From Candidatus Hodarchaeota archaeon (lineage in GTDB: Archaea > Asgardarchaeota > Lokiarchaeia > Sigyniarchaeales > SOKP01), in assembly GCA_048886685.1 (NCBI GenBank), contig JBHLKM010000035.1, forward strand, positions 1-13,491: a stretch of 13,491 nt of DNA. Direction: 5' to 3'. The position numbers were made by a program, and so were the translations under genes. Numbering within the stretch: position 1 is the stretch's first letter; every line of letters starts with the position of its first letter. Shown here piece by piece: positions 1 to 13,491 of the stretch. The notes beneath the pieces were generated by a model. It ran no database searches and had not been told where the DNA came from. It saw only the letters and a program-made list of their open reading frames with translations.

Positions 1-851
1 ACAGATGCGAATATTATGGCAACTGTAATCGCAGACGTATCAATAATCGCGACTGTCGTTTCCTCAGGAACTAATAAGGTCCATGTTGACAAAATACTTG
101 TTTCTGCAGTGAGATAACCATCTTGATTCGTTGTCGGGATGGTGTACCATTCTTCACTTTCATTATTATAATAAGCCCACTGACTTAGTCGGTTCTGATT
201 AGTTTCTCTGATTCTTAATCTTGCTTTTAGAAAGGTTCCATTATGGGGACATTCGGAATTGCATTTACACTCCGAATCACATTTGCATTGGCAGTCACAT
301 TCGCAATTACATACAGGTTCGCATTCACATGGGCAATCACATATACAAGGACATTCTGATTCACAATTGCATACACAATTACAGGAGCACACACATTTAG
401 GGTCACATTTACATTCACAACAACAAATTGCAGTAGATTTCATTGTAATACAAAAACCTTCAAAATAACGATATGTATTTCTATTTCTCACTCTATGTAG
501 ACTTCCATTCATTAAACCGAGTTGTGCTTCCTCTCTGGTACATTTCATAGTCATTTTAAGGTCATCATCTCCTTCAACTTCAATAATGACATCTTTATAT
601 CCTATTTCTATAGCATCACAGTTAATATTCAATTCTAAGCCAACATTGGCACAAATTGTTAATTTTGTTCTTTCCTGAAACCAAAACATAGTTCTGATAT
701 TACTTTGTAGTTGTGTTTGAATCGTATCACCTTGAACTGTTACTGTTTGATCTGGAGTTTCAATTGCCCTTACATTAACAGATCCTACTAATGAAAGCAC
801 AATCAACACCATGACACCACTTAATAATATCTTACTAAAACTTTTTTGCAT
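1..851 (-). CDS. Secreted/membrane-anchored protein with metallothionein-like Cys-rich (CxC repeat) insert; 3' end runs off the window
   Basis: Absent from the ORF track because there is no stop in the window. Manual translation from ATG 851 is open for 283 codons: signal peptide MQKSFSKILLSGVMVLIVLSLVGSVNVRA, then ...TYRYFEGFCITMKSTAI-CCCECKCDPKCVCSCNCVCNCESECPCICDCPCECEPVCNCECDCQCKCDSECKCNSEC-PHNGTFLKARLRIRETNQNRLSQWAYYNNESEEWYTIPTTNQDGYLTAETSILSTWTLLVPEE..., ending in hydrophobic AITVAIIFAS (probable TM start). GGTGA SD-like motif at 858-862. Confidence 0.9.
   Translation of the reverse strand, partial: MQKSFSKILLSGVMVLIVLSLVGSVNVRAIETPDQTVTVQGDTIQTQLQSNIRTMFWFQERTKLTICANVGLELNINCDAIEIGYKDVIIEVEGDDDLKMTMKCTREEAQLGLMNGSLHRVRNRNTYRYFEGFCITMKSTAICCCECKCDPKCVCSCNCVCNCESECPCICDCPCECEPVCNCECDCQCKCDSECKCNSECPHNGTFLKARLRIRETNQNRLSQWAYYNNESEEWYTIPTTNQDGYLTAETSILSTWTLLVPEETTVAIIDTSAITVAIIFAS
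249..425 (-). repeat. Cys-rich coding repeat, 14-aa (42-nt) period: (CxCxCxCxCxC-xxx)n
   Basis: Units: CCCECKC-DPK / CVCSCNCVCNC-ESE / CPCICDCPCEC-EPV / CNCECDCQCKC-DSE / CKC-NSE-C. 26 Cys in 59 codons, counted by hand. Confidence 0.9.
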
Positions 852-959
852 TAAAAATCACCAAATTTTAAATCAAAGAATAATTTGAATTTAAAATAAA
901 AAGGATTAAGGTATAACTTTCCCCAATAAGATTGAATCTCAAAATTAAAACTAAGGAAA

Positions 960-1127
960 ATGAAAATCCTTAGAGAATCTATCGAAATTAATATTTCTCC
1001 CGAAGTTATTTGGGATTTGTTATTACACATAGCAGAAAATTACCTAGAATGACATCCTTCTCACATAAAGGATAAATGGGAAACAGAAATAGCTAAAGAT
1101 GTATCCTTTTCTAATGCGGTATCTTGA
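960..1127 (+). pseudogene. SRPBCC (START/polyketide-cyclase-like) family N-terminal remnant
   Basis: ATG 960: MKILRESIEINISPEVIWDLLLHIAENYLE*HPSHIKDKWETEIAKDVSFSNAVS*. Matches the SRPBCC start pattern (SIEIxxxPExxW...YxxWHPxH). In-frame TGA at 1050-1052 sits where the Trp of WHP is expected; the rest of the domain is missing. Confidence 0.6.
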
Positions 1128-1218
1128 AGGGTTAAATAAGGCTCTGGGCGATGATAAAAAGAAAATCGATAAATGGGAAAAAGATTTAAGAAAATATTTA
1201 ACTAATTTAAGTGATTGA
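1099..1218 (+). other. Short ORF or C-terminal gene fragment (39 aa) abutting the DUF166 start
   Basis: MYPFLMRYLEGLNKALGDDKKKIDKWEKDLRKYLTNLSD*. Protein-like helical composition; the stop lies 1 nt before ATG 1220, as in an operon junction. Confidence 0.3.
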
Positions 1219-1219
1219 A

Positions 1220-1906
1220 ATGAAAATCGGACTAATTTCAGATGGAAAGTATGGCGAGAGAGCATTTGAAAATTTCAAACGAGAATTTGAAGTTATTTGG
1301 ATAAAGGTCCCAGAGATTCCCTCAAATATAATATTAGATGAAATTGTTAACGTTAATATTCCCGATTGCGATCTCTACATCTCTTACATAAGACATCCAG
1401 ATTTAATCCTACAAATAGCAGAACTTCAAAAGCCACTGATTTTAGGAATCACGCCCGGTCTTGGTTTAGCTGAACAAGCAAAAAGAATTAATCCTAAAGT
1501 AATTAGCCCAAGAACTATGTGTTCATTAGAACCTAACACAGGTATTGACGAAATAGATGAGTTTGCACTCTATTTTGGAAGACCAAAGTACGAAGTATTA
1601 ACCAATTCTCAAGGTTTAGTACGAGCTATTAAAGTGAATCGTTCTTCTCCGTGTGGTTCTTCTTTAGCGAGTGCTAATTTCATAAAAAGTAAATCAATAA
1701 AATTGAACAATCTTCAAAACTTTGCTTTGGCAGTATGCCATGAATGTAGAGCACCTCGTTTTGGTCATACTTGCGATAAAGAAATTTCTGGAATGATTCA
1801 TATAATATCATTAATCAATAGTGTTCAATTTGATGGATTAGATCCAGAAACTGCTGATTTTATTGTAAAAATTAACAAAGAATATAATGCTCGAATTAAA
1901 AATTAG
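1220..1906 (+). CDS. DUF166 family protein (conserved Cys motifs, function unknown)
   Basis: N-terminal ISDGKYGERA, internal HPDL, PRTMCSL, FGRPKYEV, RSSPCGSS and C-terminal CHECRAPRFGHTCDK. ATG 1220 is preferred over GTG 1211 because GTGA at 1211-1214 looks like the SD. Confidence 0.75.
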   Translation: MKIGLISDGKYGERAFENFKREFEVIWIKVPEIPSNIILDEIVNVNIPDCDLYISYIRHPDLILQIAELQKPLILGITPGLGLAEQAKRINPKVISPRTMCSLEPNTGIDEIDEFALYFGRPKYEVLTNSQGLVRAIKVNRSSPCGSSLASANFIKSKSIKLNNLQNFALAVCHECRAPRFGHTCDKEISGMIHIISLINSVQFDGLDPETADFIVKINKEYNARIKN

Positions 1907-2024
1907 AATCTAGAATTTCATGGGTTTATATTTTCTAAAATCATATCTTGTGATGATTTCACCTCGAAGGAATTGTAGTTGTTTCAGAAAGTTTAATATA
2001 GAAACAAGGAATTAAGCTACGATT

Positions 2025-3395
2025 CTATTTCATATAATCATTGTATTCGGGTATAAATCCTTCTTTCATTAATAGCTTAAATTCCGATTGAGAATTTTCA
2101 ATTAATTTTTTTGCGGTTGAATATAATTCTTCTTCTGAAAGTTTAAGGCGGGCTATTCCTTGTTCAATTGCTTTTAAGCCAGTAGTAACAGCTTCTCTGA
2201 TGAATGATTCTTCATAATCCATGGTCGGAAGGATACATGTCTCTGTTAAACCCCCTTTAATCTCATCAACTAAATTTGCTAGAGCATAAGAAGCTGCAAT
2301 GCACATCTCATCAGTAATAGTTTTAGCGCATACATCTAAGGTTCCTCTAAATACTCCTGGGAAACATAGAGAATTATTTACTTGATTTGGAAAATCAGAT
2401 CGTCCTGTTCCTACAATTCTCGCACCAGCTTCTAATGCATCCCATGGAAATATTTCTGGAATTGGATTCGCTAAGGTGAAAACTATCGCATCATCAGCCA
2501 TTTTTGAAATCCATTCCTTCTTAATGACATCAGGACCTGGAATACTAGAAGATATAAGAATATCAGCTCCTTCCATTGCTATACCACAATCACCCTGCAA
2601 TTGTTCTGGATTACTAAAATCAATTAATTCAAGTTTATAATCATGAGTATCTCTTAAATCCGTTCTATCCTTATATAAAATTCCTTTCGAATCTACAAAT
2701 ATAAATTTTTTTAAATTAAATCCATCGGTTTTTAATAATCGAAAAATTCCGAAATTTGCAGCACCAGCTCCATTAAAGACAATCTTCACTTCACTTTTCT
2801 TCTTTCCTACTATTCGTAATGAATTTATTAATGCAGCAAGAGTTACACATGCAGTTCCTTGTTGATCATCATGCCATACGGGAATTTCTATTTCTGGGTC
2901 TGCACGGATTCCATCTAAAACAGAAAAGCATTTGGGTTTTTCAATATCTTCTAAATTTATACCCCCAAATGAAGGTTGAATCAATTTTACAAATTCTATA
3001 ATCTGATCAGCATCGCAACATGTTTCTTTACCAATACATAAGGGAACGGCATCAACACCACCTAAATATTTGAACAATAAAGATTTTCCTTCCATCACCG
3101 GTAAAGCTGCTTCAGGACCAATATCTCCAAGACCTAAAACTCTTGTTCCGTCACTTACAATAGCAATAGAATTCCATTTATTTGTATATTCATACACTTT
3201 TTGTTTATCTTTAAAAATTTCGGAAGAGGGTGCTGATACTCCAGGAGAATACCATATCGAAAAGTCATGATAATCTCGAATTTGACAACGAGGAAGTACC
3301 TCTATTTTACCCCTGTAGAACTTATGCATTTTGATTGCATTAAGTCCAGGAATTTTTGATTTTCTCAATAGTTCTTCTTTAGTTAATTTTTTCAT
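2025..3395 (-). CDS. mae: NAD(P)-dependent malic enzyme (short prokaryotic type, no PTA fusion)
   Basis: Motifs YSPGV, SDGTRVLGLGDIGPEAALPVMEGKSLLFKYLGGVD, GINLEDI, WHDDQQGTA, NGAGAA (Rossmann), ANPIPEI, TGRSDFPNQVNNSLCFPGVFRG. Confidence 0.96.
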   Translation of the reverse strand: MKKLTKEELLRKSKIPGLNAIKMHKFYRGKIEVLPRCQIRDYHDFSIWYSPGVSAPSSEIFKDKQKVYEYTNKWNSIAIVSDGTRVLGLGDIGPEAALPVMEGKSLLFKYLGGVDAVPLCIGKETCCDADQIIEFVKLIQPSFGGINLEDIEKPKCFSVLDGIRADPEIEIPVWHDDQQGTACVTLAALINSLRIVGKKKSEVKIVFNGAGAANFGIFRLLKTDGFNLKKFIFVDSKGILYKDRTDLRDTHDYKLELIDFSNPEQLQGDCGIAMEGADILISSSIPGPDVIKKEWISKMADDAIVFTLANPIPEIFPWDALEAGARIVGTGRSDFPNQVNNSLCFPGVFRGTLDVCAKTITDEMCIAASYALANLVDEIKGGLTETCILPTMDYEESFIREAVTTGLKAIEQGIARLKLSEEELYSTAKKLIENSQSEFKLLMKEGFIPEYNDYMK

Positions 3396-3501
3396 AAAAA
3401 AATAAAATACCTCTGAATTATAATAAATTTGATTATATTACATAAATACATTTAATATATCTATTACTTTGCTTAAAAAGTTTAATATCTAAGGGAATCA
3501 C

Positions 3502-3700
3502 TCACTCATGGGGTATTAAAAACATCAAGAGTATAATAATTATTACCTAACAGAGGAAAATTGATGCTCAAATAATAGATTTCTTTTGGCTTTTCTCCTT
3601 TACTAGTTCTACCATGAGCTCAGTAGTAGCAATGTACAAAAAACCAATCACTCCAGAAACTATAAATCACTAAAACCATAATATAATCCCAAGTACTCAT
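3502..3700 (-). pseudogene. ZIP (ZupT/GufA-like) metal transporter remnant, internally deleted
   Basis: Minus frame 3666..3502: FIVSGVIGFLYIATTELMVELVKEKSQKKSII*ASIFLC*VIIIILLMFLIPHE*. Resembles the ZIP TM7-TM8 signature (GxFLYIAxxELxPEL...KKS). Stops at 3570-3568 and 3549-3547. ATG 3700 (MSTWDYIMVLV) is in another frame. Confidence 0.5.
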
Positions 3701-3974
3701 TTCTTTAATTCTTTCCATGCTAGCCTAGATGTACAAAACTATGAAGGAAAAAAAAGAATTTTATATTTGAATCTAAGTTGATCAGCCTATTTAAGACTTA
3801 TTCTAGTACTATCTCTTCTGTATACTCCGTGAATAAATCCAATAATTTTACTAGTAATTTCAATAATTTACAGGTGAAAAAGATGGAATCCCTTTTATAT
3901 TGAAAAAAATATAATATTCTACATGATCAAAATTGATCACACATCTTAAAAAAACAAAACAAAATGAAATCAAC

Positions 3975-5357
3975 ATGCAAAAAAAAATCGTAATAACGAG
4001 TTGGATATTAACTGCATTAGCACTATCGATCATACTTCCTGTAATAGCGGTGAGCGCCAAAAAACCAGAATATATCACCAGCGACTCCGTCTACATCAAT
4101 GATGCCGTTGAAGGTTGTTCCTGGGAAGATTGGAGCGCACAACCGTGGTTGAAAGGATCAGGTACAGAAGAAGATCCCTACATGATTAAAGATCTCACCA
4201 TTGAGGTAAGCGGTCCTGTGTTTGCCCTGATGATCTACGGATCAAGCGTCCATTTTAAGATAATGAAGTGCACTTTCCGCAACATAGGAGGGCAAGGAAC
4301 TGCGGCACTTGTATTACTCGGAACGCAAAACGGAGTTGTCTTTAAAAACACGTTCTATGGAAGCAATACGGGAATTGCCTTAATTGGATCGGAGCACAAC
4401 GTAATCCAGAAGAATTTTTGTTATGAAAATGTTATTGGGATTTATAACCAATGGGGTATGTTCAATACTATTACGCAAAACGACTGTATTAACAACTTTG
4501 GTTCGGGTATTGTGATCGACTCAGCTCATAAGACATTAATTGAGCGGAACGTCTGCATGGGAAACATTAAAGCAGGCATTGCGTTGATAACTCAAAATGA
4601 AGAAAACACCCCTAAAGATAACCTGATTTACGCAAATACGTTGAAAAACAACCAAGTTGGAATTTACTTAAACGATTCGGATAAAAACGATATGTTTAGA
4701 AATACGATTGCACAAAACGCGGTCGGGATCATGTTTGACGTGGGATCCCAAGAAAACACAGTGTACCATAATAACATCGTCAATAATGGCATGCAAACCA
4801 TTGATTATCAACCGTTGATGAACAATTGGTATCATCCTTTCATGTTAGAAGGAAATTACTGGTCGGATTATGCAGGTGTAGATGAGAACGAAGATGGTAT
4901 CGGGGACACTCCTCGTGGGTATGATGGATATCCGCTCATGGGAAAAGACGGCTGGGACTTTTATACTCCTGAGGAACAGGAAATTCTAGACGCCTTCTTC
5001 AACAATATTAATCGGTTAGGAGCCGACCGCACCGTGAATGGAAGTGAGACCAGCTACATTATCTACGGTGTCATTCAGTTATTTTCTGAAAGAATGAACG
5101 GGGAAGCAAATCCTCCCTATAGTATGAGGATCAATGGAAATGAAGTGTCAGATTCCGTGTGGTATTTTCAAGAGGAATCTGCTTTTGGAGAACCAGGTTT
5201 AAACCAATATTTCTACCTGAAATTACCTCCTAATTTTCTCTTTGATGTAATGGGGCTTACTCCGGGATACTGGAAATATTTCGTAGAATTGAGTTGGTAT
5301 ATGGGCGAGGATTTGTTCACAGATAGTTTCTGGACGGGCTTCACCTTAATTCAATAA
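3975..5357 (+). CDS. Secreted right-handed parallel beta-helix (NosD/CASH, pectin-lyase-like) protein
   Basis: Signal peptide MQKKIVITSWILTALALSIILPVIAVSA from ATG 3975 (the track start 3933 is TTG). GSGTEEDPYMI motif, repeated GIxLxxSxxNxIxxNxxxxN PbH1 units, and NosD-type GNYWSDYAGVDENEDGIGDTP, followed by an unassigned C-terminal domain. Confidence 0.85.
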   Translation: MQKKIVITSWILTALALSIILPVIAVSAKKPEYITSDSVYINDAVEGCSWEDWSAQPWLKGSGTEEDPYMIKDLTIEVSGPVFALMIYGSSVHFKIMKCTFRNIGGQGTAALVLLGTQNGVVFKNTFYGSNTGIALIGSEHNVIQKNFCYENVIGIYNQWGMFNTITQNDCINNFGSGIVIDSAHKTLIERNVCMGNIKAGIALITQNEENTPKDNLIYANTLKNNQVGIYLNDSDKNDMFRNTIAQNAVGIMFDVGSQENTVYHNNIVNNGMQTIDYQPLMNNWYHPFMLEGNYWSDYAGVDENEDGIGDTPRGYDGYPLMGKDGWDFYTPEEQEILDAFFNNINRLGADRTVNGSETSYIIYGVIQLFSERMNGEANPPYSMRINGNEVSDSVWYFQEESAFGEPGLNQYFYLKLPPNFLFDVMGLTPGYWKYFVELSWYMGEDLFTDSFWTGFTLIQ

Positions 5358-5636: not shown

Positions 5637-5674
5637 ACGGTGCCTGAAGGCATAAAACAATCACGGAAAGGATT

Positions 5675-5849
5675 GCAAAGATCTTTAGGAATTTTTCCTT
5701 AAAGATGTTCAAGAAAATTATCTCTTGAAATATACTCCAAGGATCCTTTTCTCTTTTCAATAATCTTAAAATGTAAGAACTTTTACAAAAGGTTGGAAAC
5801 AGACAATATTGTAAAATTTAAATGTTTAAATTTTATATTAAAATTAGAA
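5675..5849 (+). repeat. Direct repeat copy 1 (~175 bp), upstream of the cdc48-like gene
   Basis: gcaaagatctttag...aattagaa aligns to 7333..7506 with 12 substitutions and 1 indel (~93%, manual alignment). Confidence 0.95.
5810..5834 (+). promoter_or_regulatory. Putative TATA-box region inside the repeat
   Basis: TGTAAAA-TTTAAA-TG-TTTAAA-TTT (TTTAAA at 5817 and 5825), about 40-55 nt upstream of the 5871 start. Conserved in copy 2 (7474, 7482). Confidence 0.45.
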
Positions 5850-5870
5850 TGAACATGCATTTTTTAAAAT

Positions 5871-7313
5871 GTGTTAAAAGTGGTAAAAGACAAAACAGTT
5901 AGAAAGAGAGCAAAACTCAGAGTCGAACGTCTTGAAAAAAGCAGAGGCGGTCGTTCTTTATGTTATATTCATCAAGATGTAATGATTGATTTAGGGTTAC
6001 ATACGGGTGATATCATCGAAATTAGGGGAAAGAAAAAAACTACTGGTATTGCCGTTTTGAATTCTGCTTATAGAGGAAAAGGAATTATAAGATTAGATGG
6101 TCTTCAGAGACTTAACGCAGGAGCAACCATTGGCGAGTATGTTTCATTAAAGAAAACAAAAGTATATCCTGCAATTGAAATTGTTTTAACTCCTACAAGA
6201 TCAAATATAGATTTAAAAAGACAAGCAGATGCGATTAAAAGTAAATTAATTGATAAACCAGTAGTAATTGGTGATATAGTTGATGTTTTTGGGACTTTTG
6301 TTCAAAGAGAAGATCATGACAATCGTATGTCTGATCTTATGAAAATGTTTCAACTTGGTTCAAAAAGAAGGGCAACTTTAGGAACATTAAGGTTTATCGT
6401 TGAAGATTTGAAACCATCAGATAAAGTCGTAAAAATAACTCGAGATACTATAATAAAAGTAAATAAACGGGTTGCGGTTTTAAATAAAGTAGGTGGGAAG
6501 GTTACCTATAGCGATGTAGGAGGATTATCTGATGAAATTTATAGGATTCGAGAAATAGTTGAATTACCTTTAAAACATCCAGAATTATTCCAAAAATTAA
6601 GAATAACTCCACTTCAAGGCATTTTACTATACGGTCCCCCCGGAGTCGGGAAAACTTTATTAGTTAAAGCAATTTCACAAGAAACAGGAGTAAATTTTAT
6701 TGATATTAGTGGCCCAGAGATTTATAGTAAATTTTCTGGAGAGACTGAAGGAAAGCTTCGTGAAATATTCAGAAATGCAGAAGAAAATGCCCCATCAATA
6801 ATATTTTTTGATAAAATAGATGTTATTGCTCCAAAAGAAAAGGTTCATACTGATAAATTGGATAGGAGAGTTATCGCGCAACTTTTAATTCTGATGGATG
6901 GACTCCGTGGTAGAGGTGAAGTTATTATAATAGCGGAGACGAATAGAATTGATGATATTGATCCTGCATTAAGGCGCCCAGGGAGATTTGATAGAGAAAT
7001 CGAAATTAAACCTCCTGATACTAAGGGAAGATTAGAAATTTTAAAAATTCACACCCGCGAAATGCCTTTGGATGAGGATGTTGATCTTCAAATAATCGCA
7101 GAAAGAACCCAAGGGTTTGTTGGGGCTGATCTTGAGGCTTTGGTAAAGGAAGCGGCAATTTTAGAGATGAAAGAAGTTTTACCAAAAATAAAAGAAGATA
7201 TATCTATTCCAGCAGATACTTTAGATGATCTTCAAATCAGGATGGAGCATTTTCTTACTGCCTTAGGAAGCATGAGCCCTTCAACTCTTAGACAAATGCT
7301 AACAAAACCTTAA
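5871..7313 (+). CDS. cdc48: Cdc48/p97/VAT-family protein, N-domain plus a single AAA module, degenerate Walker B
   Basis: N-domain ([29 protein letters not shown]), [23 protein letters not shown], Walker A GPPGVGKT (6633-6656), Walker B IIFFDKID (AAA at 6813), [26 protein letters not shown]. Ends at the D1-D2 linker (PSTLRQ); no D2. Confidence 0.92.
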
Positions 7314-7332
7314 AGTTTTAAAGAATGAAATA

Positions 7333-7506
7333 GCAAAGATCTTTAGTAATTTTACCTTAAAGATGTTCAAGAAAATTATCTCTTGAAATATACTCCAAGG
7401 ATCCTTTTCTCTTTTAATAATCTTATAATGATAGAGCTTTTACAAAAGGTTGGAAATAGACAATAATGTAAAATTTAAATGTTTAAATTTGTTAATATAA
7501 TTAGAA
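7333..7506 (+). repeat. Direct repeat copy 2 (~174 bp), between the cdc48-like and Rab-like genes
   Basis: Same alignment as copy 1; begins after a 19-nt gap following the cdc48 stop; period 1658 bp. Confidence 0.95.
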
Positions 7507-7648
7507 GGAAAAGAAAGAGAATCCTGCCTTGTAGAAGTTAAATTTTAATTTCTATAAATCGAGATTTTTTGAATAGAAATGGGATTATTAAGTAAGTGGA
7601 GGATTATTAATTCAGGGTTTAGAATTAATGATCAATTGTAGTGAAAAG

Positions 7649-8173
7649 ATGTCAAGCTTTAAATTAAAAGTATTATTAACAGGCGCTAAAGCAGTAGATA
7701 AGACAAGGCTATTTAATAAAATAATTAAAGTAAGGATTCAAGCAAATTACAAGCTAACTGTAGGTGTTGACATTCTTACAAAAGATGTTGAATTTAGAAC
7801 AGGAGAAATTGCTATTTTAAGCATTTGGGATATAAGAGACCAACAACGTTTTGAATATATTCGCAGTACATTTTATAAAGGAGCAGCTGGAGCTATATTA
7901 GTTTTTGATTTAACACGAGAAGAGACATATAGTGAAGTAAAAAATTTACTTACTGAAATAAGGCAATTCGCTGGTGAAAATATTCCTTTTGTTTTAATCG
8001 GAAATAACGTTCATTTACTTAAACTGAAAGATAAAGGAATTATTCGAAAAGAGGCTTGTGAATTTGCCAGAAATGAAGGAGGGATCTATATTGAGATATC
8101 TCCAACCAGTATTGATGTTCTCGAAGAAGGAATTTGTGAATTAACTCGTAGGATTATTAATTCAAGAACTTAA
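7649..8173 (+). CDS. Rab/Ras-superfamily small GTPase-fold protein, predicted pseudo-GTPase
   Basis: FKLKVLLTG, YKLTVGVD (G2), LSIWD, QRFEYIRSTFYKGAAGAILVFDLT, IPFVLIGN. G1 GAKAVDKT, G3 DIRD, G4 NNVH and G5 EISPT are all non-canonical. ATG 7649 is preferred (GTGA at 7641); the track start is 7628. No C-terminal prenylation Cys. Confidence 0.9.
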   Translation: MSSFKLKVLLTGAKAVDKTRLFNKIIKVRIQANYKLTVGVDILTKDVEFRTGEIAILSIWDIRDQQRFEYIRSTFYKGAAGAILVFDLTREETYSEVKNLLTEIRQFAGENIPFVLIGNNVHLLKLKDKGIIRKEACEFARNEGGIYIEISPTSIDVLEEGICELTRRIINSRT

Positions 8174-8371
8174 AATATTGAGTAATTTAGCTACAGATGC
8201 TTAGCTTAAGAGTAGAACTATTAAAACTGAGCAGATTCAATTCCATTATCTCACGGGAAAAATAGACATAAATGTAGAGTTTATATTGATAAATTTTCTT
8301 GTTATTATTTGGGATTAAGCGGTTGAAAAATAAAAAAAGATCCAAAAAAAAGGTGTAATATATCCTATAAA

Positions 8372-9613
8372 ATGTCACATTATGATTATACATTAAAAGT
8401 GTTGCTTCTTGGTGATGAAACTAAAGCAAAAACAGCTTTCACCAAAAGATATTGCTATAATATATTTAATCCATCAGAGCGATTAACAATCGGAGTAGAC
8501 TTCCATGTAAAAAGCATTGAAATAAACGGTACAAAAATAAAACTTCAAATCTGGGATGTTGGAGGGGAAGAGAGGTTTAGATTCCTTTTACCAACGTATT
8601 GTTTAGGTGCTAATGGCGCTTTTCTACTATATGACATAACTAAACCCTCTACTTTAGATAATATACCAGAATGGATGAATATTATAAGGGAAAAGGGAGG
8701 ACCGATACCTATTATGTTAGTTGGATCAAAACTTCATTCAGAAGAACATCGAGTAGTTTCTAGAGAAAAAGGAATTTCAATGGCAGAAAATTATAATCTC
8801 TCGGCTTTTATGGAAATTTGCTCTGAAGCGAATGTGAATATTGATGAAGCATTTAAAGTCCTAATCGAACTTATACTTGAAAGGTATGAAGATTTAAGAA
8901 CCCTAATACCATTAAATTTCGCACCTATTAAAATTAAACCCGAATTCAAAATTAACGAATATTTGGAACTCCGATTAGAAAATAGTAAAACGAACATATA
9001 TGTCGGAGGAGATTTGTTTAACAGCTGCAAATATTTATTATTAAACCTGACAAAGGATAATAATAATAATTTTGAGAATATTGACTCAGTGGATCAAGCT
9101 ATTGAAAATTTAGATGGATCGATGGAACGGGAGCATAAACATGATATTTCTGCCGAAACAGAATTTTGGGGACATTGTTCCAATTTACAGGCGTGGTATG
9201 AAAATGATTATGATACACGTATTTTACATAGAAATTTAGCGTTTCCTCTTTTGAAAGCACTTGTAAAAGCGGGAGATAAAACTGCAAGAGTAAAATTTAA
9301 AGAGCAAGTTGCCCTTAGGCTTGAAAGTGGTTATCCTTCTGTAGTAATGTTTCTTATAGCTCAAGGTTATTTAAAATATTTAACTGAGGAAGAATTAGAT
9401 ACTATATTAAAAAATCCAAAATTTTTAAAAAATGTGCCAAAATGGTTTAATGATTTCAAGAATATTCCAGATTGGCTTGAAGAAAAGATAAGAGCGATAT
9501 TTAACGATTTGAAGTGTCCCTATTGTGATATTAGGATAAAAAGGAATTCAATTCAGAGAATTCTAAAGGGAGAATCATTGAAATGTGAATTTTGTTATAG
9601 TAATCTAATATAA
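8372..9613 (+). CDS. Rab-like GTPase domain fused to a Lokiarchaeal 'EFWGHCSNLQAW' domain and a C-terminal Zn ribbon
   Basis: aa 1-~173: LTIGVDFHVK, KLQIWDVGGEERFRFL, GAFLLYDIT, with G1 GDETKAKT, G4 SKLH, G5 EICSE. 8942-9397: EFKINEYLELRLE...CKYLLL...EFWGHCSNLQAWYENDYDTRILHRNLAFPLLK...GYLKYLTEEEL. 9515-9595: CPYC-x19-CEFC. Confidence 0.9.
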   Translation: MSHYDYTLKVLLLGDETKAKTAFTKRYCYNIFNPSERLTIGVDFHVKSIEINGTKIKLQIWDVGGEERFRFLLPTYCLGANGAFLLYDITKPSTLDNIPEWMNIIREKGGPIPIMLVGSKLHSEEHRVVSREKGISMAENYNLSAFMEICSEANVNIDEAFKVLIELILERYEDLRTLIPLNFAPIKIKPEFKINEYLELRLENSKTNIYVGGDLFNSCKYLLLNLTKDNNNNFENIDSVDQAIENLDGSMEREHKHDISAETEFWGHCSNLQAWYENDYDTRILHRNLAFPLLKALVKAGDKTARVKFKEQVALRLESGYPSVVMFLIAQGYLKYLTEEELDTILKNPKFLKNVPKWFNDFKNIPDWLEEKIRAIFNDLKCPYCDIRIKRNSIQRILKGESLKCEFCYSNLI

Positions 9614-9929: not shown

Positions 9930-10325
9930 ATGAAGATTATTACAGTTCAATTACCAGAATCATATACACGGAAATTAGAAAACATGACTCGACAGATTGG
10001 TGTTAGTAGATCAGAACTTATTAGAACGGCAGTCAGGGACTTCCTAAATAACGAGTTTACCTTAATTGAAGAATTAAAAAAAGAAAATAGAAGAAATAAA
10101 ATTGCCAGGTTTTTTGATTACTGTATTAATTGTGAAAGAAAAATATATAGTGCTTCAGGGAGTAATCACTTTTTTCATAAAACAATTGAAATTTTCAAAT
10201 TGAAGTTTTGTTGTTCTTGTTATAAGAACTATAGGGATAAAACTTTAGATGAGTTTCCAGAAGATTTGATCGAAAAAATAAAGAAGAGGATTAAGGCATA
10301 TCGAGAAAATTCTTCGTCATCATAA
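9930..10325 (+). CDS. Ribbon-helix-helix (CopG/Arc/MetJ) transcriptional regulator with C-terminal Cys4 Zn-binding module
   Basis: MKIITVQLPESYTRKLENM...GVSRSELIRTAVRDFL is a typical RHH; followed by CINC-x25-CCSC. Confidence 0.85.
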   Translation: MKIITVQLPESYTRKLENMTRQIGVSRSELIRTAVRDFLNNEFTLIEELKKENRRNKIARFFDYCINCERKIYSASGSNHFFHKTIEIFKLKFCCSCYKNYRDKTLDEFPEDLIEKIKKRIKAYRENSSSS

Positions 10326-10426: not shown

Positions 10427-13400
10427 TTAAGATTTCTGTTTTACTCGCTTATAAACAATGAGAATTATTATAACACACGCTATTCCAATGAAATATAAGG
10501 GATAACCGGATATTGTCCCAGGACCTCCGCCTGGAGATTCCTCCTGTACATCGATGAAGTCAAAATTAGACGGATCTGAGCTTCCTGATTCATTAGATGC
10601 AACGACAGCGTAGTACCATCTGCCAATTCCGGGTACAGTGTCCGTTGTAGTAGTTTCTGATGTAGTTTTTACTTCCGTCGCGAGATTTAAATTACTCGAA
10701 GTTATTGCGGATGTGTATCTATAAAGAGTATAATTGTCCGCACCTGGTGAAGTTGTCCATTCCAATGAGATATCAAAGCTAGTTGTAGGTGATGTGGTAG
10801 TAATAGTCAATACCGGAGGGTTTGGTGATTCTGGTTCTTTTTGAACATCGATATATGGAGAATTAGAGGGGTCTGAGTTTCCCGTCTCATTAGTAGCAAC
10901 AACTGCATAATACCATGTTCCAATTCCAGGTACAGTATCTGTTGTAGAGATATCCGTAATAGTTTTTACATTTGTAGCAAGATGTAGATTGCTCGAAGTT
11001 ATTGGGGAAGTATATCTATAGAGTGTATAATTATCAGCGCCCAATGATGTTGTCCATTCCAAAGCAATGACAAAACTGGTTGTTGGAGAAGACGTAAGTA
11101 TACTTAATGTTGGGGGACTAGGTGTTTGCGGAGCCCATTCATCCCAATTTAGGGTAAGATTGTCTGAATTATCCATTGGTTGGGCTGCAAAATCAACATT
11201 CGGATAGGTACCTAAAAACCAAGATAGATCATCTTGACCAAAAAAATGAGGTATGTCGTTAAAATTTACTTCAAATGTCCAATTAGTGTGAAAATTCAAG
11301 TAATATAACAAGGATTGGAGCTGGATTTTAGTAAAAGAAAAATCTTGAGTTCTATTTGCTTCAAAGACAATAGATTTATGAGTTTCATTGAATATAAAAT
11401 GACCTTCATTTTCAAATTCTAATCCCTCTCCAGTTATAGTCCCGTTGAGAGCTCCTTGAAGTTGAGGGGTAAAAATCAAATCTAATCCTGTAGTTTCATC
11501 TAGAATCAGGTGATCTATAAGTTGGCAAAAAGATTGTAGATCTGGCTTAAAGGTTTTTATTAGGTATTTTATAATTGGCCAAAGGTGAATTCTAATATCA
11601 CATGTTACTATATTTCCCACAACATGATTTCCAAGAACAAAATTCTCAATTGAAATGTAAGTAGTTGCCTTGCTTTTATTTAGATAGTCATTAATAGACT
11701 TTTGAATGTAATCCGAAGCAATACCACTTAATCCATCCTTAAATCCAAAATAATTAAGATATAAGTTAATTTCTTGAAGAGGAATAGGAAAATGTATACT
11801 TCCCTTTTTTGTTATATTAAAATCTCCAGTAAAGAGTTTCTGATTAAATGAAACGTTGTAGTCAATCAAATAGTCTATAGTAATATTTGGGTTCCCCATT
11901 GCGCCTATAGTAAGAGTAAAATTGCCTGTTTCACCTATTCCTGGCTCATTCTCTGGATATGATAGTGTAAAATTAATAGGTATATCAACGGTAGTGTTGA
12001 CTTGAGCTTCAAGATTTGATTTAAAATATGGATCTGTTTGTATTATACTTTCAATCCAATCTTTGATATTAGGTTCAATTAATAAGATGTTCTCAAGCCC
12101 TGAAGCAATGTATGGAGCTTTAAAAAGTGAATTAAAATATAGTGTAAATGGTGTTTTTAATGGACAAAATTTGGTAGTCCAGTTTCCCCATGTGTTATTT
12201 TCGATAAATTCATTAAAATGATTGCCATATAAATCTCTCAAAACTGTATTATTTAATGCATATCTAGGAATTTCATTCCACATAAATGTTGTGGCTAGTT
12301 GTGGATTATAGGGTTTGATTTCAAAGCCATGTGAATTTGTAGTAGTTGCGAGTCTCACAGAGGAACCTATTTGGTTTTCCATACTTATAGGTGTTGTGTT
12401 TACAGCTATACTCATTTTAATAGTTTCATTTAGAAAGGGGGCTAATTGAGCAGTTGTATTAATAGAATAGTTATAAATACCCTCACCTAAACTAAAGTTA
12501 GGATCAAATATTTGGTGATATCGATCATTGTTATCAGCCCAGGAATCATCATAAAAACATACGATCCGATCTGGAAATGAACCAATATTATAAGGATTTA
12601 TAAAAGCAATATAAGGAACCCAATCATAAGCTACATCGAAAGATATGCCACTTTTAAGTTTTCTCGATGAATATTCATATATAAAAATTAAAGCCAGAGA
12701 ATCTCCATATATATCATCTGTACCCTTTAGAATTCGTTCATATATCTTAATTGGCTTGTCAATTGTAGGATTAACTTTACCTAACGCTGGGCGATACATA
12801 TCCATTAGATCTTTTACAGTAACATTCGCAGTTCCAAGGCCTTCAGAAAGTAGTGCACCATTAGTTGCGACTTTTGGATTTTCAGTGTTCTCTGGACCCC
12901 ACATAACTAAATAATACCATCCAGTTTTGTTAATTGTAATCGCGAAATTAGTGGAAGCATTCATGATTTTTGGTAGACCCGCATTATTTATTTCTTTACT
13001 GTATTCGTAGATCCAATCATCACTAGTATGGGATGAATTAAAACCATCAACTCCCAAAATATTTGGCACCCAAAGCCATGGTTTGATATAATTTTCAAAA
13101 TCGAGAAATTGGCTTTGGTTGAAAATGTACAAGTTTGTTTCTAAATTAGCAAAAGTAATTATATAACCTTCCCATGAAGTTGTTATATTATAGATTACCC
13201 CTTCCCTTGCGAAAAACACTGTAGTATCATAAGGATTAAGCATATTATTATTAGTAGAAGGCAAAGAAGCATTATTATCAAAATCACGATAGTGATTCCA
13301 AGACACATTTGATGGTTGAAATGTAATTTCTATGGAGTCTGTATGCGTATATGAAGTTGTATTAATAGGATTAAAATCAGTTAGGTTTCCAATAAGGGCA

Positions 13401-13491
13401 TCCATCGATAAATCTTCAGTACTATTTTTATATACATAATTAATCATCGGTTCACTCCAGGTCAATATTGTAGTAATTTCATCTGTTAAAG
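10427..13491 (-). CDS. Large cell-surface glycoprotein with two C-terminal FN3-like repeats and Loki-CTERM-like anchor; 5' end outside the window
   Basis: Frame stays open beyond the track's TTG 13465 to the window edge (LTDEITTI-LTWSEP). Very many N-x-S/T sequons. Two 99-aa FN3-like units. Ends GGGPGTISGYPLYFIGIACVIIILIVYKRVKQKS (I[PS]GY + TM + basic tail). Confidence 0.88.
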   Translation of the reverse strand, partial: LTDEITTILTWSEPMINYVYKNSTEDLSMDALIGNLTDFNPINTTSYTHTDSIEITFQPSNVSWNHYRDFDNNASLPSTNNNMLNPYDTTVFFAREGVIYNITTSWEGYIITFANLETNLYIFNQSQFLDFENYIKPWLWVPNILGVDGFNSSHTSDDWIYEYSKEINNAGLPKIMNASTNFAITINKTGWYYLVMWGPENTENPKVATNGALLSEGLGTANVTVKDLMDMYRPALGKVNPTIDKPIKIYERILKGTDDIYGDSLALIFIYEYSSRKLKSGISFDVAYDWVPYIAFINPYNIGSFPDRIVCFYDDSWADNNDRYHQIFDPNFSLGEGIYNYSINTTAQLAPFLNETIKMSIAVNTTPISMENQIGSSVRLATTTNSHGFEIKPYNPQLATTFMWNEIPRYALNNTVLRDLYGNHFNEFIENNTWGNWTTKFCPLKTPFTLYFNSLFKAPYIASGLENILLIEPNIKDWIESIIQTDPYFKSNLEAQVNTTVDIPINFTLSYPENEPGIGETGNFTLTIGAMGNPNITIDYLIDYNVSFNQKLFTGDFNITKKGSIHFPIPLQEINLYLNYFGFKDGLSGIASDYIQKSINDYLNKSKATTYISIENFVLGNHVVGNIVTCDIRIHLWPIIKYLIKTFKPDLQSFCQLIDHLILDETTGLDLIFTPQLQGALNGTITGEGLEFENEGHFIFNETHKSIVFEANRTQDFSFTKIQLQSLLYYLNFHTNWTFEVNFNDIPHFFGQDDLSWFLGTYPNVDFAAQPMDNSDNLTLNWDEWAPQTPSPPTLSILTSSPTTSFVIALEWTTSLGADNYTLYRYTSPITSSNLHLATNVKTITDISTTDTVPGIGTWYYAVVATNETGNSDPSNSPYIDVQKEPESPNPPVLTITTTSPTTSFDISLEWTTSPGADNYTLYRYTSAITSSNLNLATEVKTTSETTTTDTVPGIGRWYYAVVASNESGSSDPSNFDFIDVQEESPGGGPGTISGYPLYFIGIACVIIILIVYKRVKQKS
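10538..11131 (-). repeat. Tandem 297-bp (99-aa) FN3-like domain duplication
   Basis: Unit 1 11131-10835 and unit 2 10834-10538 share LEWTTSxGADNYTLYRYTSxITSSNLxLATxVKT...TTDTVPGIGxWYYAVVAxNExGxSDPSN. Confidence 0.92.

Follow-up and report, generated by a model that had tools for sequence, protein, structure and literature searches.

Why should an archaeon keep three neighbouring, uninterrupted genes for nucleoside triphosphatases whose nucleotide motifs are broken? The question is raised by contig JBHLKM010000035.1, which is analysed here at its entire length of 13.5 kb (the window; contig C35 of the 4.4 Mb genome G000) and whose nearest homologs carry the label Promethearchaeota/Lokiarchaeia. 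Other genomes are designated by G, contigs by C and the compared loci by L, each with a number, and an asterisk marks a disabled copy. The three co-oriented open reading frames (ORFs) Cdc48*, GTPase1* and GTPase2* (Table 1) had been described in an earlier note as adjacent and intact, and they are indeed open. Our comparison with the active paralogs of G000, against which the motif lesions were judged, documents that each gene combines a catalytically broken body with the predicted partner-binding face of one active paralog of the same cell, namely, the N-domain of Cdc48 and the switch I-to-switch II region in each of two different Rab-like GTPases. These putative faces are matched to the host through purifying selection and at times gene conversion, and the comparisons characterise all three genes as selectively maintained and horizontally mobile.

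The lesions are real. Unitigs of run X1, a public run that is possibly the source sample, span the junction between N-domain and D1 module, the Walker B site, the stop codon of Cdc48* and the junction between GTPase1* and GTPase2* with 0-2 mismatches. An assembly artefact is unlikely because these unitigs bridge the key junctions almost mismatch-free. A chimera as the source of the mosaic of N-domain and D1 in Cdc48* was ruled out by the bridging unitig and by independent ENA, JGI and GTDB copies that share the architecture. The canonical counterparts are located in the same genome, on C12 for Cdc48 and on C13 and C9 for the GTPases. In total, G000 harbors three full-length Cdc48 genes and about 113 P-loop GTPase domains, of which about 20 were scored as G1-broken, part of these being fragments or mis-scores.

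Broken catalytic bodies and host-matched faces

Each of the three genes is a member of a family of disabled copies that extends over several genomes within one Lokiarchaeia family. Cdc48* begins with an N-domain that is matched by PF02359 and PF02933 of Pfam and continues into a single AAA module. The change of Walker B from DE to DK and the lack of a second module (D2), both reported in the earlier note, were confirmed: the codon at 6813-6815 is AAA, and the ORF stops right behind the lid of D1. Cdc48* and its relatives with complete ends thus have one AAA module instead of the two of Cdc48/p97/VAT, and D2 is absent from all of these. In the window copy, Walker A and the Arg-finger motif are intact and the Tyr of pore loop 1 is replaced by Ser. 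The interaction surfaces had been thought to look canonical; this holds for the N-domain, the Arg fingers and the switch regions of the GTPases, but not for Cdc48*'s second region of homology (SRH), where GATN has become AETN with a Glu that all clade members share.

Searches with the full-length protein drowned in two-domain proteins, and the relatives came from a D1-only query: they are found in G145, G138, G125 and G084 as well as in a JGI contig and an ENA contig, the latter with one full copy and a partial one in tandem. Full copies invariably show Lys or Arg in Walker B, retain Walker A intact and have exchanged Ala for Glu two residues ahead of the sensor-1 position (7/7 each); the Arg-finger motif is kept and the pore-loop aromatic lost in 6/7 each. 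Their D1 domains form one clade (support 100/100), with pairwise ratios of nonsynonymous to synonymous substitutions (dN/dS) of 0.11-0.34, and the window pseudo-D1 is near saturation at synonymous sites and equally distant from all three Cdc48 paralogs of G000. The N-domains, in contrast, form no clade and are scattered among canonical Cdc48s in a quick version of the tree (6 label changes). The N-domain of G084 pairs with the host's own Cdc48 (support 97-100; proportion of synonymous differences, pS, 0.26), that of G145 does so with moderate support, and the other genomes are less clear. The simplest reading of this scatter versus the single D1 clade is that the N-domain has repeatedly been replaced through recombination or gene conversion with host-type Cdc48. 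Exact DNA patterns, which overlook variants, recovered Cdc48* from four other GTDB genomes and from no viral contig; among metagenome contigs the count was zero, and one with a second pattern.

Both GTPases are matched by the Pfam family Ras, indicative of a small-GTPase fold, and C-terminal prenylation cysteines are missing in GTPase1* as well as in both parents. Relative to its C13 parent, which is about 92% conserved across the family, GTPase1* has lost all four motifs that had been named: GK is changed to DK in G1, DxxG is lost in G3, NKxD reads NNVH in G4 and SAK reads SPT in G5. A strongly broken second copy is present in about 20 genomes of two genera, and milder, host-derived copies occur in several further ones. 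Among the broken copies, switch identity amounts to 79% versus 40% in G1/helix 1, the corresponding values for canonical orthologs being 96% and 99%. Six non-overlapping close pairs exhibit dN/dS values of 0.19 for the switch region, 0.80 for G1, 0.33 for G4 and 0.47 for G5 (0.27 for GTPase1* pooled). The window switch is 85% identical to that of the parent at a pS of 0.77 (switch versus rest, Fisher p=0.012), and since this identity stands at such a distance, the alignment argues for maintenance by selection rather than recent copying. Recent conversion of the switch from the host parent is seen in G087 (switch pS 0.03) and G010. No GTPase1* was found in viral contigs by a search that reached close relatives only.

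Two observations on related GTPases may be added. On contig C59 of G125, the first approximately 80 residues encoded at L108 (165-1145, reverse strand) are 55% identical to a PAN-like AAA N-terminus (G000 C15:58934) and fused to a pseudo-GTPase that adjoins a GTPase1* copy whose tail is a zinc ribbon. Within 3.4 kb of G000 (C2:39539-42937), another three GTPase genes with a broken G1 are clustered.

GTPase2* is derived from a different parent, the C9 gene, and three of its motifs are degraded, precisely those that had been reported as altered: GK reads AK in G1, Asp is replaced by His in G4 and SAK reads CSE in G5. G3 (DVGGE) and the SK of G4 correspond to the normal state of the parent. Weak nucleotide binding is possible because the P-loop Lys-Thr and G3 are kept. 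The predicted structure (AlphaFold2) matches Rab8 and Rab11 with a TM score by target of about 0.85. At a pS of 0.76 the switch region retains 93% identity, and the G4 and G5 regions 54-56%, versus 79-96% between canonical orthologs.

Fusions of this type to a C-terminal domain of about 225 residues (the FWGHCSN domain) are present in about 30 of 119 genomes; most are without a complete set of G1 and G4, a few seem intact, and the G domains stem from different parents. One example is a fusion on C32 of G000 with the switch region of a C3 parent, yet with a G4 region in common with the window gene (pS 0.29). A fourth parent, C12:130093, also has its own disabled copy on C32 (switch 91% at pS 0.81). 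The C-terminal domain of GTPase2* evolves at a dN/dS of about 0.24 (dN 0.20, dS 0.85), and its fold is predicted confidently (pLDDT 84). Its Atlas matches are solely Promethearchaeota clusters of GTPase fusions, leucine-rich repeat proteins and hypotheticals. An ESM Atlas feature search yielded no usable match, VIA-align gave a best Z of 3.9 with nothing clear, which does not establish a new fold, and PADLOC returned scattered weak matches, none of them for this domain of the window. Three IMG/VR contigs (L233-L235, 93-111 kb) encode it at 42-46% identity, fused to unrelated regions.

Several loci show variations on GTPase2*. In L073 (G052) and L223 (G084) part of the C-terminal domain is tandemly duplicated. 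The canonical C9 parent itself stands directly ahead of a co-oriented 328-aa ORF without a Pfam match (L035, G000 C9:78890-80402), which is a candidate partner. A recurrent pair of a GTPase2-type fusion and another pseudo-GTPase whose N-terminal extension is basic is located at L032 (G000 C32:4583-8088) and L221 (G138 C35), and it carries the same promoter-like element as the window genes.

Early decay of duplicates had been regarded as a serious alternative, and it can be extended to slowly decaying, nearly neutral duplicates that are repeatedly born, patched by conversion and kept open because misfolded products are costly. The key lesions are single G-to-A changes, as had been noted, and the window does contain a real pseudogene (about 948-1106). 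Moreover, the GTPase1 copies form a gradient from mild to severe lesions, some of them recent and host-derived, and some close pairs have a dN/dS of 0.7-0.86. On the other side, identical lesions in open frames are shared by genomes across saturated synonymous distances, dN/dS is well below 1 in the pseudo-D1, and the substitutions spare the interaction faces. Conversion alone appears insufficient for the switch conservation because pS is saturated. The stops, frameshifts and dN/dS near 1 of a pseudogene contrast with three open window frames, and simulation gives a probability of an open frame of <=0.005 at 0.25 neutral changes per site. Simple decay is thus largely refuted for Cdc48* and GTPase2*.

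Shared upstream element, gene order and mobility

The duplicated element ahead of the first two genes was corroborated, and its 36-nt promoter-like core, an imperfect inverted repeat (ACA..TGT) with a TATA-like TTTAAA after it, also precedes the third, one element per gene. With a matrix built from the three sites, held-out pseudo-GTPases of G000 ranked 4, 8, 10 and 113 among 3437 upstream regions, and the parents between 47 and 2284. Pseudo-genes of G138, of the JGI contig and of a few others are preceded by related elements. The suggestion of a co-regulated module is compatible with the shared element, which common cassette ancestry would explain as well as a regulon, but the fixed gene order was found nowhere else, some of the contigs searched being short. 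Joints of the promoter with a GTPase1-like gene in run X8 were taken at 85% likeness and not used as evidence.

The same lesions recur in other genomes, the same order was not seen there: pairs and fusions are recurrent, the trio is not. GTPase1* has a GTPase2-type gene within about 4-20 kb in G016, G004, G007 and G109, cases that are not independent. G145 and the JGI contig each encode a fusion in which Cdc48* follows a degenerate small GTPase, and in G084 Cdc48* comes after a gene with the GTPase2* C-terminal domain. The arrangement of Cdc48* and GTPase1* is recent, as the 92% identity of the upstream duplicate shows. The ribbon-helix-helix (RHH) gene proposed as a regulator does match RHH_1 and follows the three genes, but in five genomes the contigs bearing these genes showed no homolog of it, and its role as dedicated regulator was rejected. 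The unseen trio order and the unlinked RHH gene are indicative of a loose accessory module instead of a fixed operon.

Across species, disabled copies often resemble each other much more closely than active orthologs do, and the synonymous distance of many pseudo pairs falls below that of the canonical genes of the same hosts. Between G000 and G145, the Cdc48* D1 has a dS of 0.16, versus 1.50 for the canonical Cdc48, which indicates a transfer of Cdc48* between species.

Table 1. Features of the three-gene locus in the window (aa, amino acids; nt, nucleotides)
Feature	Position	Strand	Remark
Upstream element, copy 1	5672..5853	+	182 nt; core 5801-5836
Cdc48*	5871..7313	+	N-domain and one AAA module, no D2; in the D1-only, Walker B Lys/Arg clade
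Cdc48* N-domain	5901..6485	+	88% aa, pS 0.30 to C12 paralog; apparently recently copied from host-type Cdc48
N-domain residues 101-205	within 5901..6485	+	94%, pS 0.21 to C12 paralog
Old pseudo-D1	6486..7298	+	59% aa, pS 0.66 to C12 paralog
Walker A	6633-6656	+	intact
Pore loop	6726-6740	+	Tyr to Ser
Walker B	6804-6821	+	DK
AETN	6933-6947	+
Arg fingers	6972-6989	+	intact
Upstream element, copy 2	7330..7510	+	92% to copy 1; core 7458-7493
GTPase1*	7628..8173	+	probable start 7649; pseudo-copy of canonical C13:101656
GTPase1* broken motifs	G1 7682-7705, G3 7826-7843, G4 8000-8014, G5 8093-8107	+
GTPase1* retained switch region	7727-7891	+
Third promoter-like core	8264..8299	+	36 nt, diverged; ahead of GTPase2*
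GTPase2*, whole ORF	8372-9613	+
GTPase2* G domain	8372..8900	+	pseudo-copy of canonical C9:80387
GTPase2* altered motifs	G1 8411-8434, G4 8723-8737, G5 8813-8827	+
GTPase2* switch region	8444-8614	+	93% identical to parent
GTPase2* C-terminal FWGHCSN domain	8942..9613	+	CxxC..CxxC ribbon 9515-9595; no Pfam match
RHH gene	9930..10325	+	RHH_1 match; neighbour without evidence of membership

Possible roles of the disabled copies

What might such genes do? On balance we lean towards maintained "shadow" pseudoenzymes of core Lokiarchaeia switches, which would act as nucleotide-independent competitors for the partners of their parents. G1, G4 and G5 are required for nucleotide binding (PMC5593906), and the pseudo-GTPases would bind nucleotide poorly or not at all; their fixed switch surface may then compete for regulators or effectors of the parent. 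Loss of the Walker B Glu in nucleotide-binding domain 1 (NBD1) traps ATP and impairs Cdc48 (PMC5447069). Cdc48* probably still binds ATP without hydrolysis or substrate threading, and it could hold cofactors or substrates through its N-domain or slow down mixed hexamers. The shared promoter-like element would switch the genes on together, thereby damping the pathways of the parents, and the three-gene cluster would represent a recent local assembly out of a larger, shuffling gene pool.

Several observations weigh against such shadow pseudoenzymes. Cdc48* is rare (5/152 genomes of the order, in two genera), the trio stands alone, and the upstream motif scores highly in just a minority of the pseudo-copies of other genomes. 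The GTPase1* subclade of the window is weakly constrained (dN/dS 0.44-0.82), and a relative in G002 contains a stop. Furthermore, the switch strands belong in part to the core of the fold, and no other part of small GTPases is as conserved in any case, so that some of the switch conservation needs no partner.

Alternatively, the genes may serve as decoys against viruses or toxins. Their products, harmless copies of targeted host surfaces, would sequester or sense effectors directed at Cdc48 or the GTPases, with the FWGHCSN domain as a possible output. The patchy distribution, horizontal transfer and conversion-based host-matching are as expected of decoys, and the PAN N-terminal segment fused to a pseudo-GTPase in G125 and the C-terminal domain in IMG/VR contigs point the same way. 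The neighbouring genes, however, are metabolic or surface genes, a switch-region dN/dS above 1 was not found, and we know of no effectors against Cdc48 or these GTPases. We regard a decoy function as unlikely. A broader version, for which we see slightly more room while still doubting it, would have Lokiarchaeia maintain a mobile, co-regulated library of dead mimics of Cdc48, several Ras-like GTPases and possibly PAN, whose faces are re-matched by recombination after transfer, as an inducible decoy or brake layer and a prokaryotic counterpart of eukaryotic decoy immunity.

A positive scaffold or adaptor is less probable than a decoy. Cdc48* would then serve as a structural ring or Arg-finger donor, comparable to the D1 of Pex1/Pex6, that links Cdc48 cofactors to GTPase-binding partners, and the pseudo-GTPases as CENP-M-like adaptors with partners of their own. 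This is in line with the retention of Walker A and the Arg fingers in Cdc48*, the joining of a degenerate GTPase to it in two fusions, and switch regions just 40-58% like any parent in several GTPase2-type subclades. A dedicated scaffold would be expected to be stably inherited and free to diverge, but the genes are patchy and the window copies parent-matched. Slow decay, with the evidence set out above, is the least credible of these alternatives, marginally behind the scaffold.

Known pseudoenzymes and neighbouring genes

Pseudoenzymes of both kinds, GTPase and AAA, are known in eukaryotes. Decoys of hosts, for example the pseudokinase ZED1 of Arabidopsis or integrated decoy domains, are dead copies of a host protein that retain its surface. 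The window genes resemble them in this respect and differ in that no immune receptor or pathogen effector was found for them.

Among GTPases, the closest counterparts are the class i pseudoGTPases p190RhoGAP pG1/pG2 and CENP-M (Stiegler and Boggon 2017, PMC5593906), which likewise combine a Ras-like fold with several degraded G motifs and are kept by selection. In those proteins, switch I features are lost as well and a close parent is missing, whereas here the switch is 85-93% identical to that of a same-cell paralog and the genes are mobile and archaeal. The parents themselves are canonical RasL proteins that lack a prenylation tail, similar to the Asgard RasL/Rab-like GTPases, which are not specifically sister to Rabs (PMC10933270; bioRxiv 10.1101/2024.02.28.582541). 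A published survey of Asgard GTPases set such sequences aside as possibly pseudogenes, whereas the present data show that at least the families described here are under selection.

Cdc48* has its N-domain and a D1 containing Walker A and Arg fingers in common with Cdc48/p97/VAT type II AAA+ proteins, and its natural loss of the Walker B Glu is paralleled in the NBD1 of Pex1/Pex6, which is inactive (PMC5447069). It differs from both in the lack of D2, the charge reversal from Glu to Lys/Arg, the second, Ala-to-Glu change and an N-domain exchanged with the host's active Cdc48. A literature search that left most subscription journals outside yielded no publication describing an Asgard Cdc48 with D1 alone and a reversed Walker B, none describing mobile pseudo-copies matched to their host, and nothing relevant on pseudoenzyme GTPases of Asgard archaea or truncated forms of their Cdc48. 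A natural Cdc48 with D1 as its sole AAA module, a charge-reversed Walker B and a host-tracking N-domain appears to be undescribed.

Hardly any partners are known for the small GTPases of Asgard archaea. Where a dead copy conserves the switch face of exactly one parent, it marks surfaces that matter and offers a natural affinity bait for these partners. The findings suggest that regulation by pseudoenzymes, usually regarded as eukaryotic, is active in Asgard archaea, and that Asgard GTPase counts include selected non-switches that surveys drop as possible pseudogenes.

The remainder of the window holds further genes. A DUF166 protein, a malic enzyme and a NosD beta-helix protein, all ordinary neighbours, are encoded at 1211-5357, with no mobile-element genes among them. 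The true pseudogene at 948-1106 (forward strand) is a broken fragment with an in-frame stop and 66-70% identity to two intact ORFs on C23. The ORF at 3-851 (reverse strand) encodes a protein with a hydrophobic stretch at its N-terminus, an extended series of CxC repeats and, where the contig ends, a hydrophobic terminus; the one at 10427-13489 (reverse strand) encodes a probable surface protein of more than 1000 aa with a C-terminal membrane anchor, and neither has a Pfam match. Two tandem repeats of about 97 aa (10538-11127, 73% nt identity) precede the membrane anchor of the latter.

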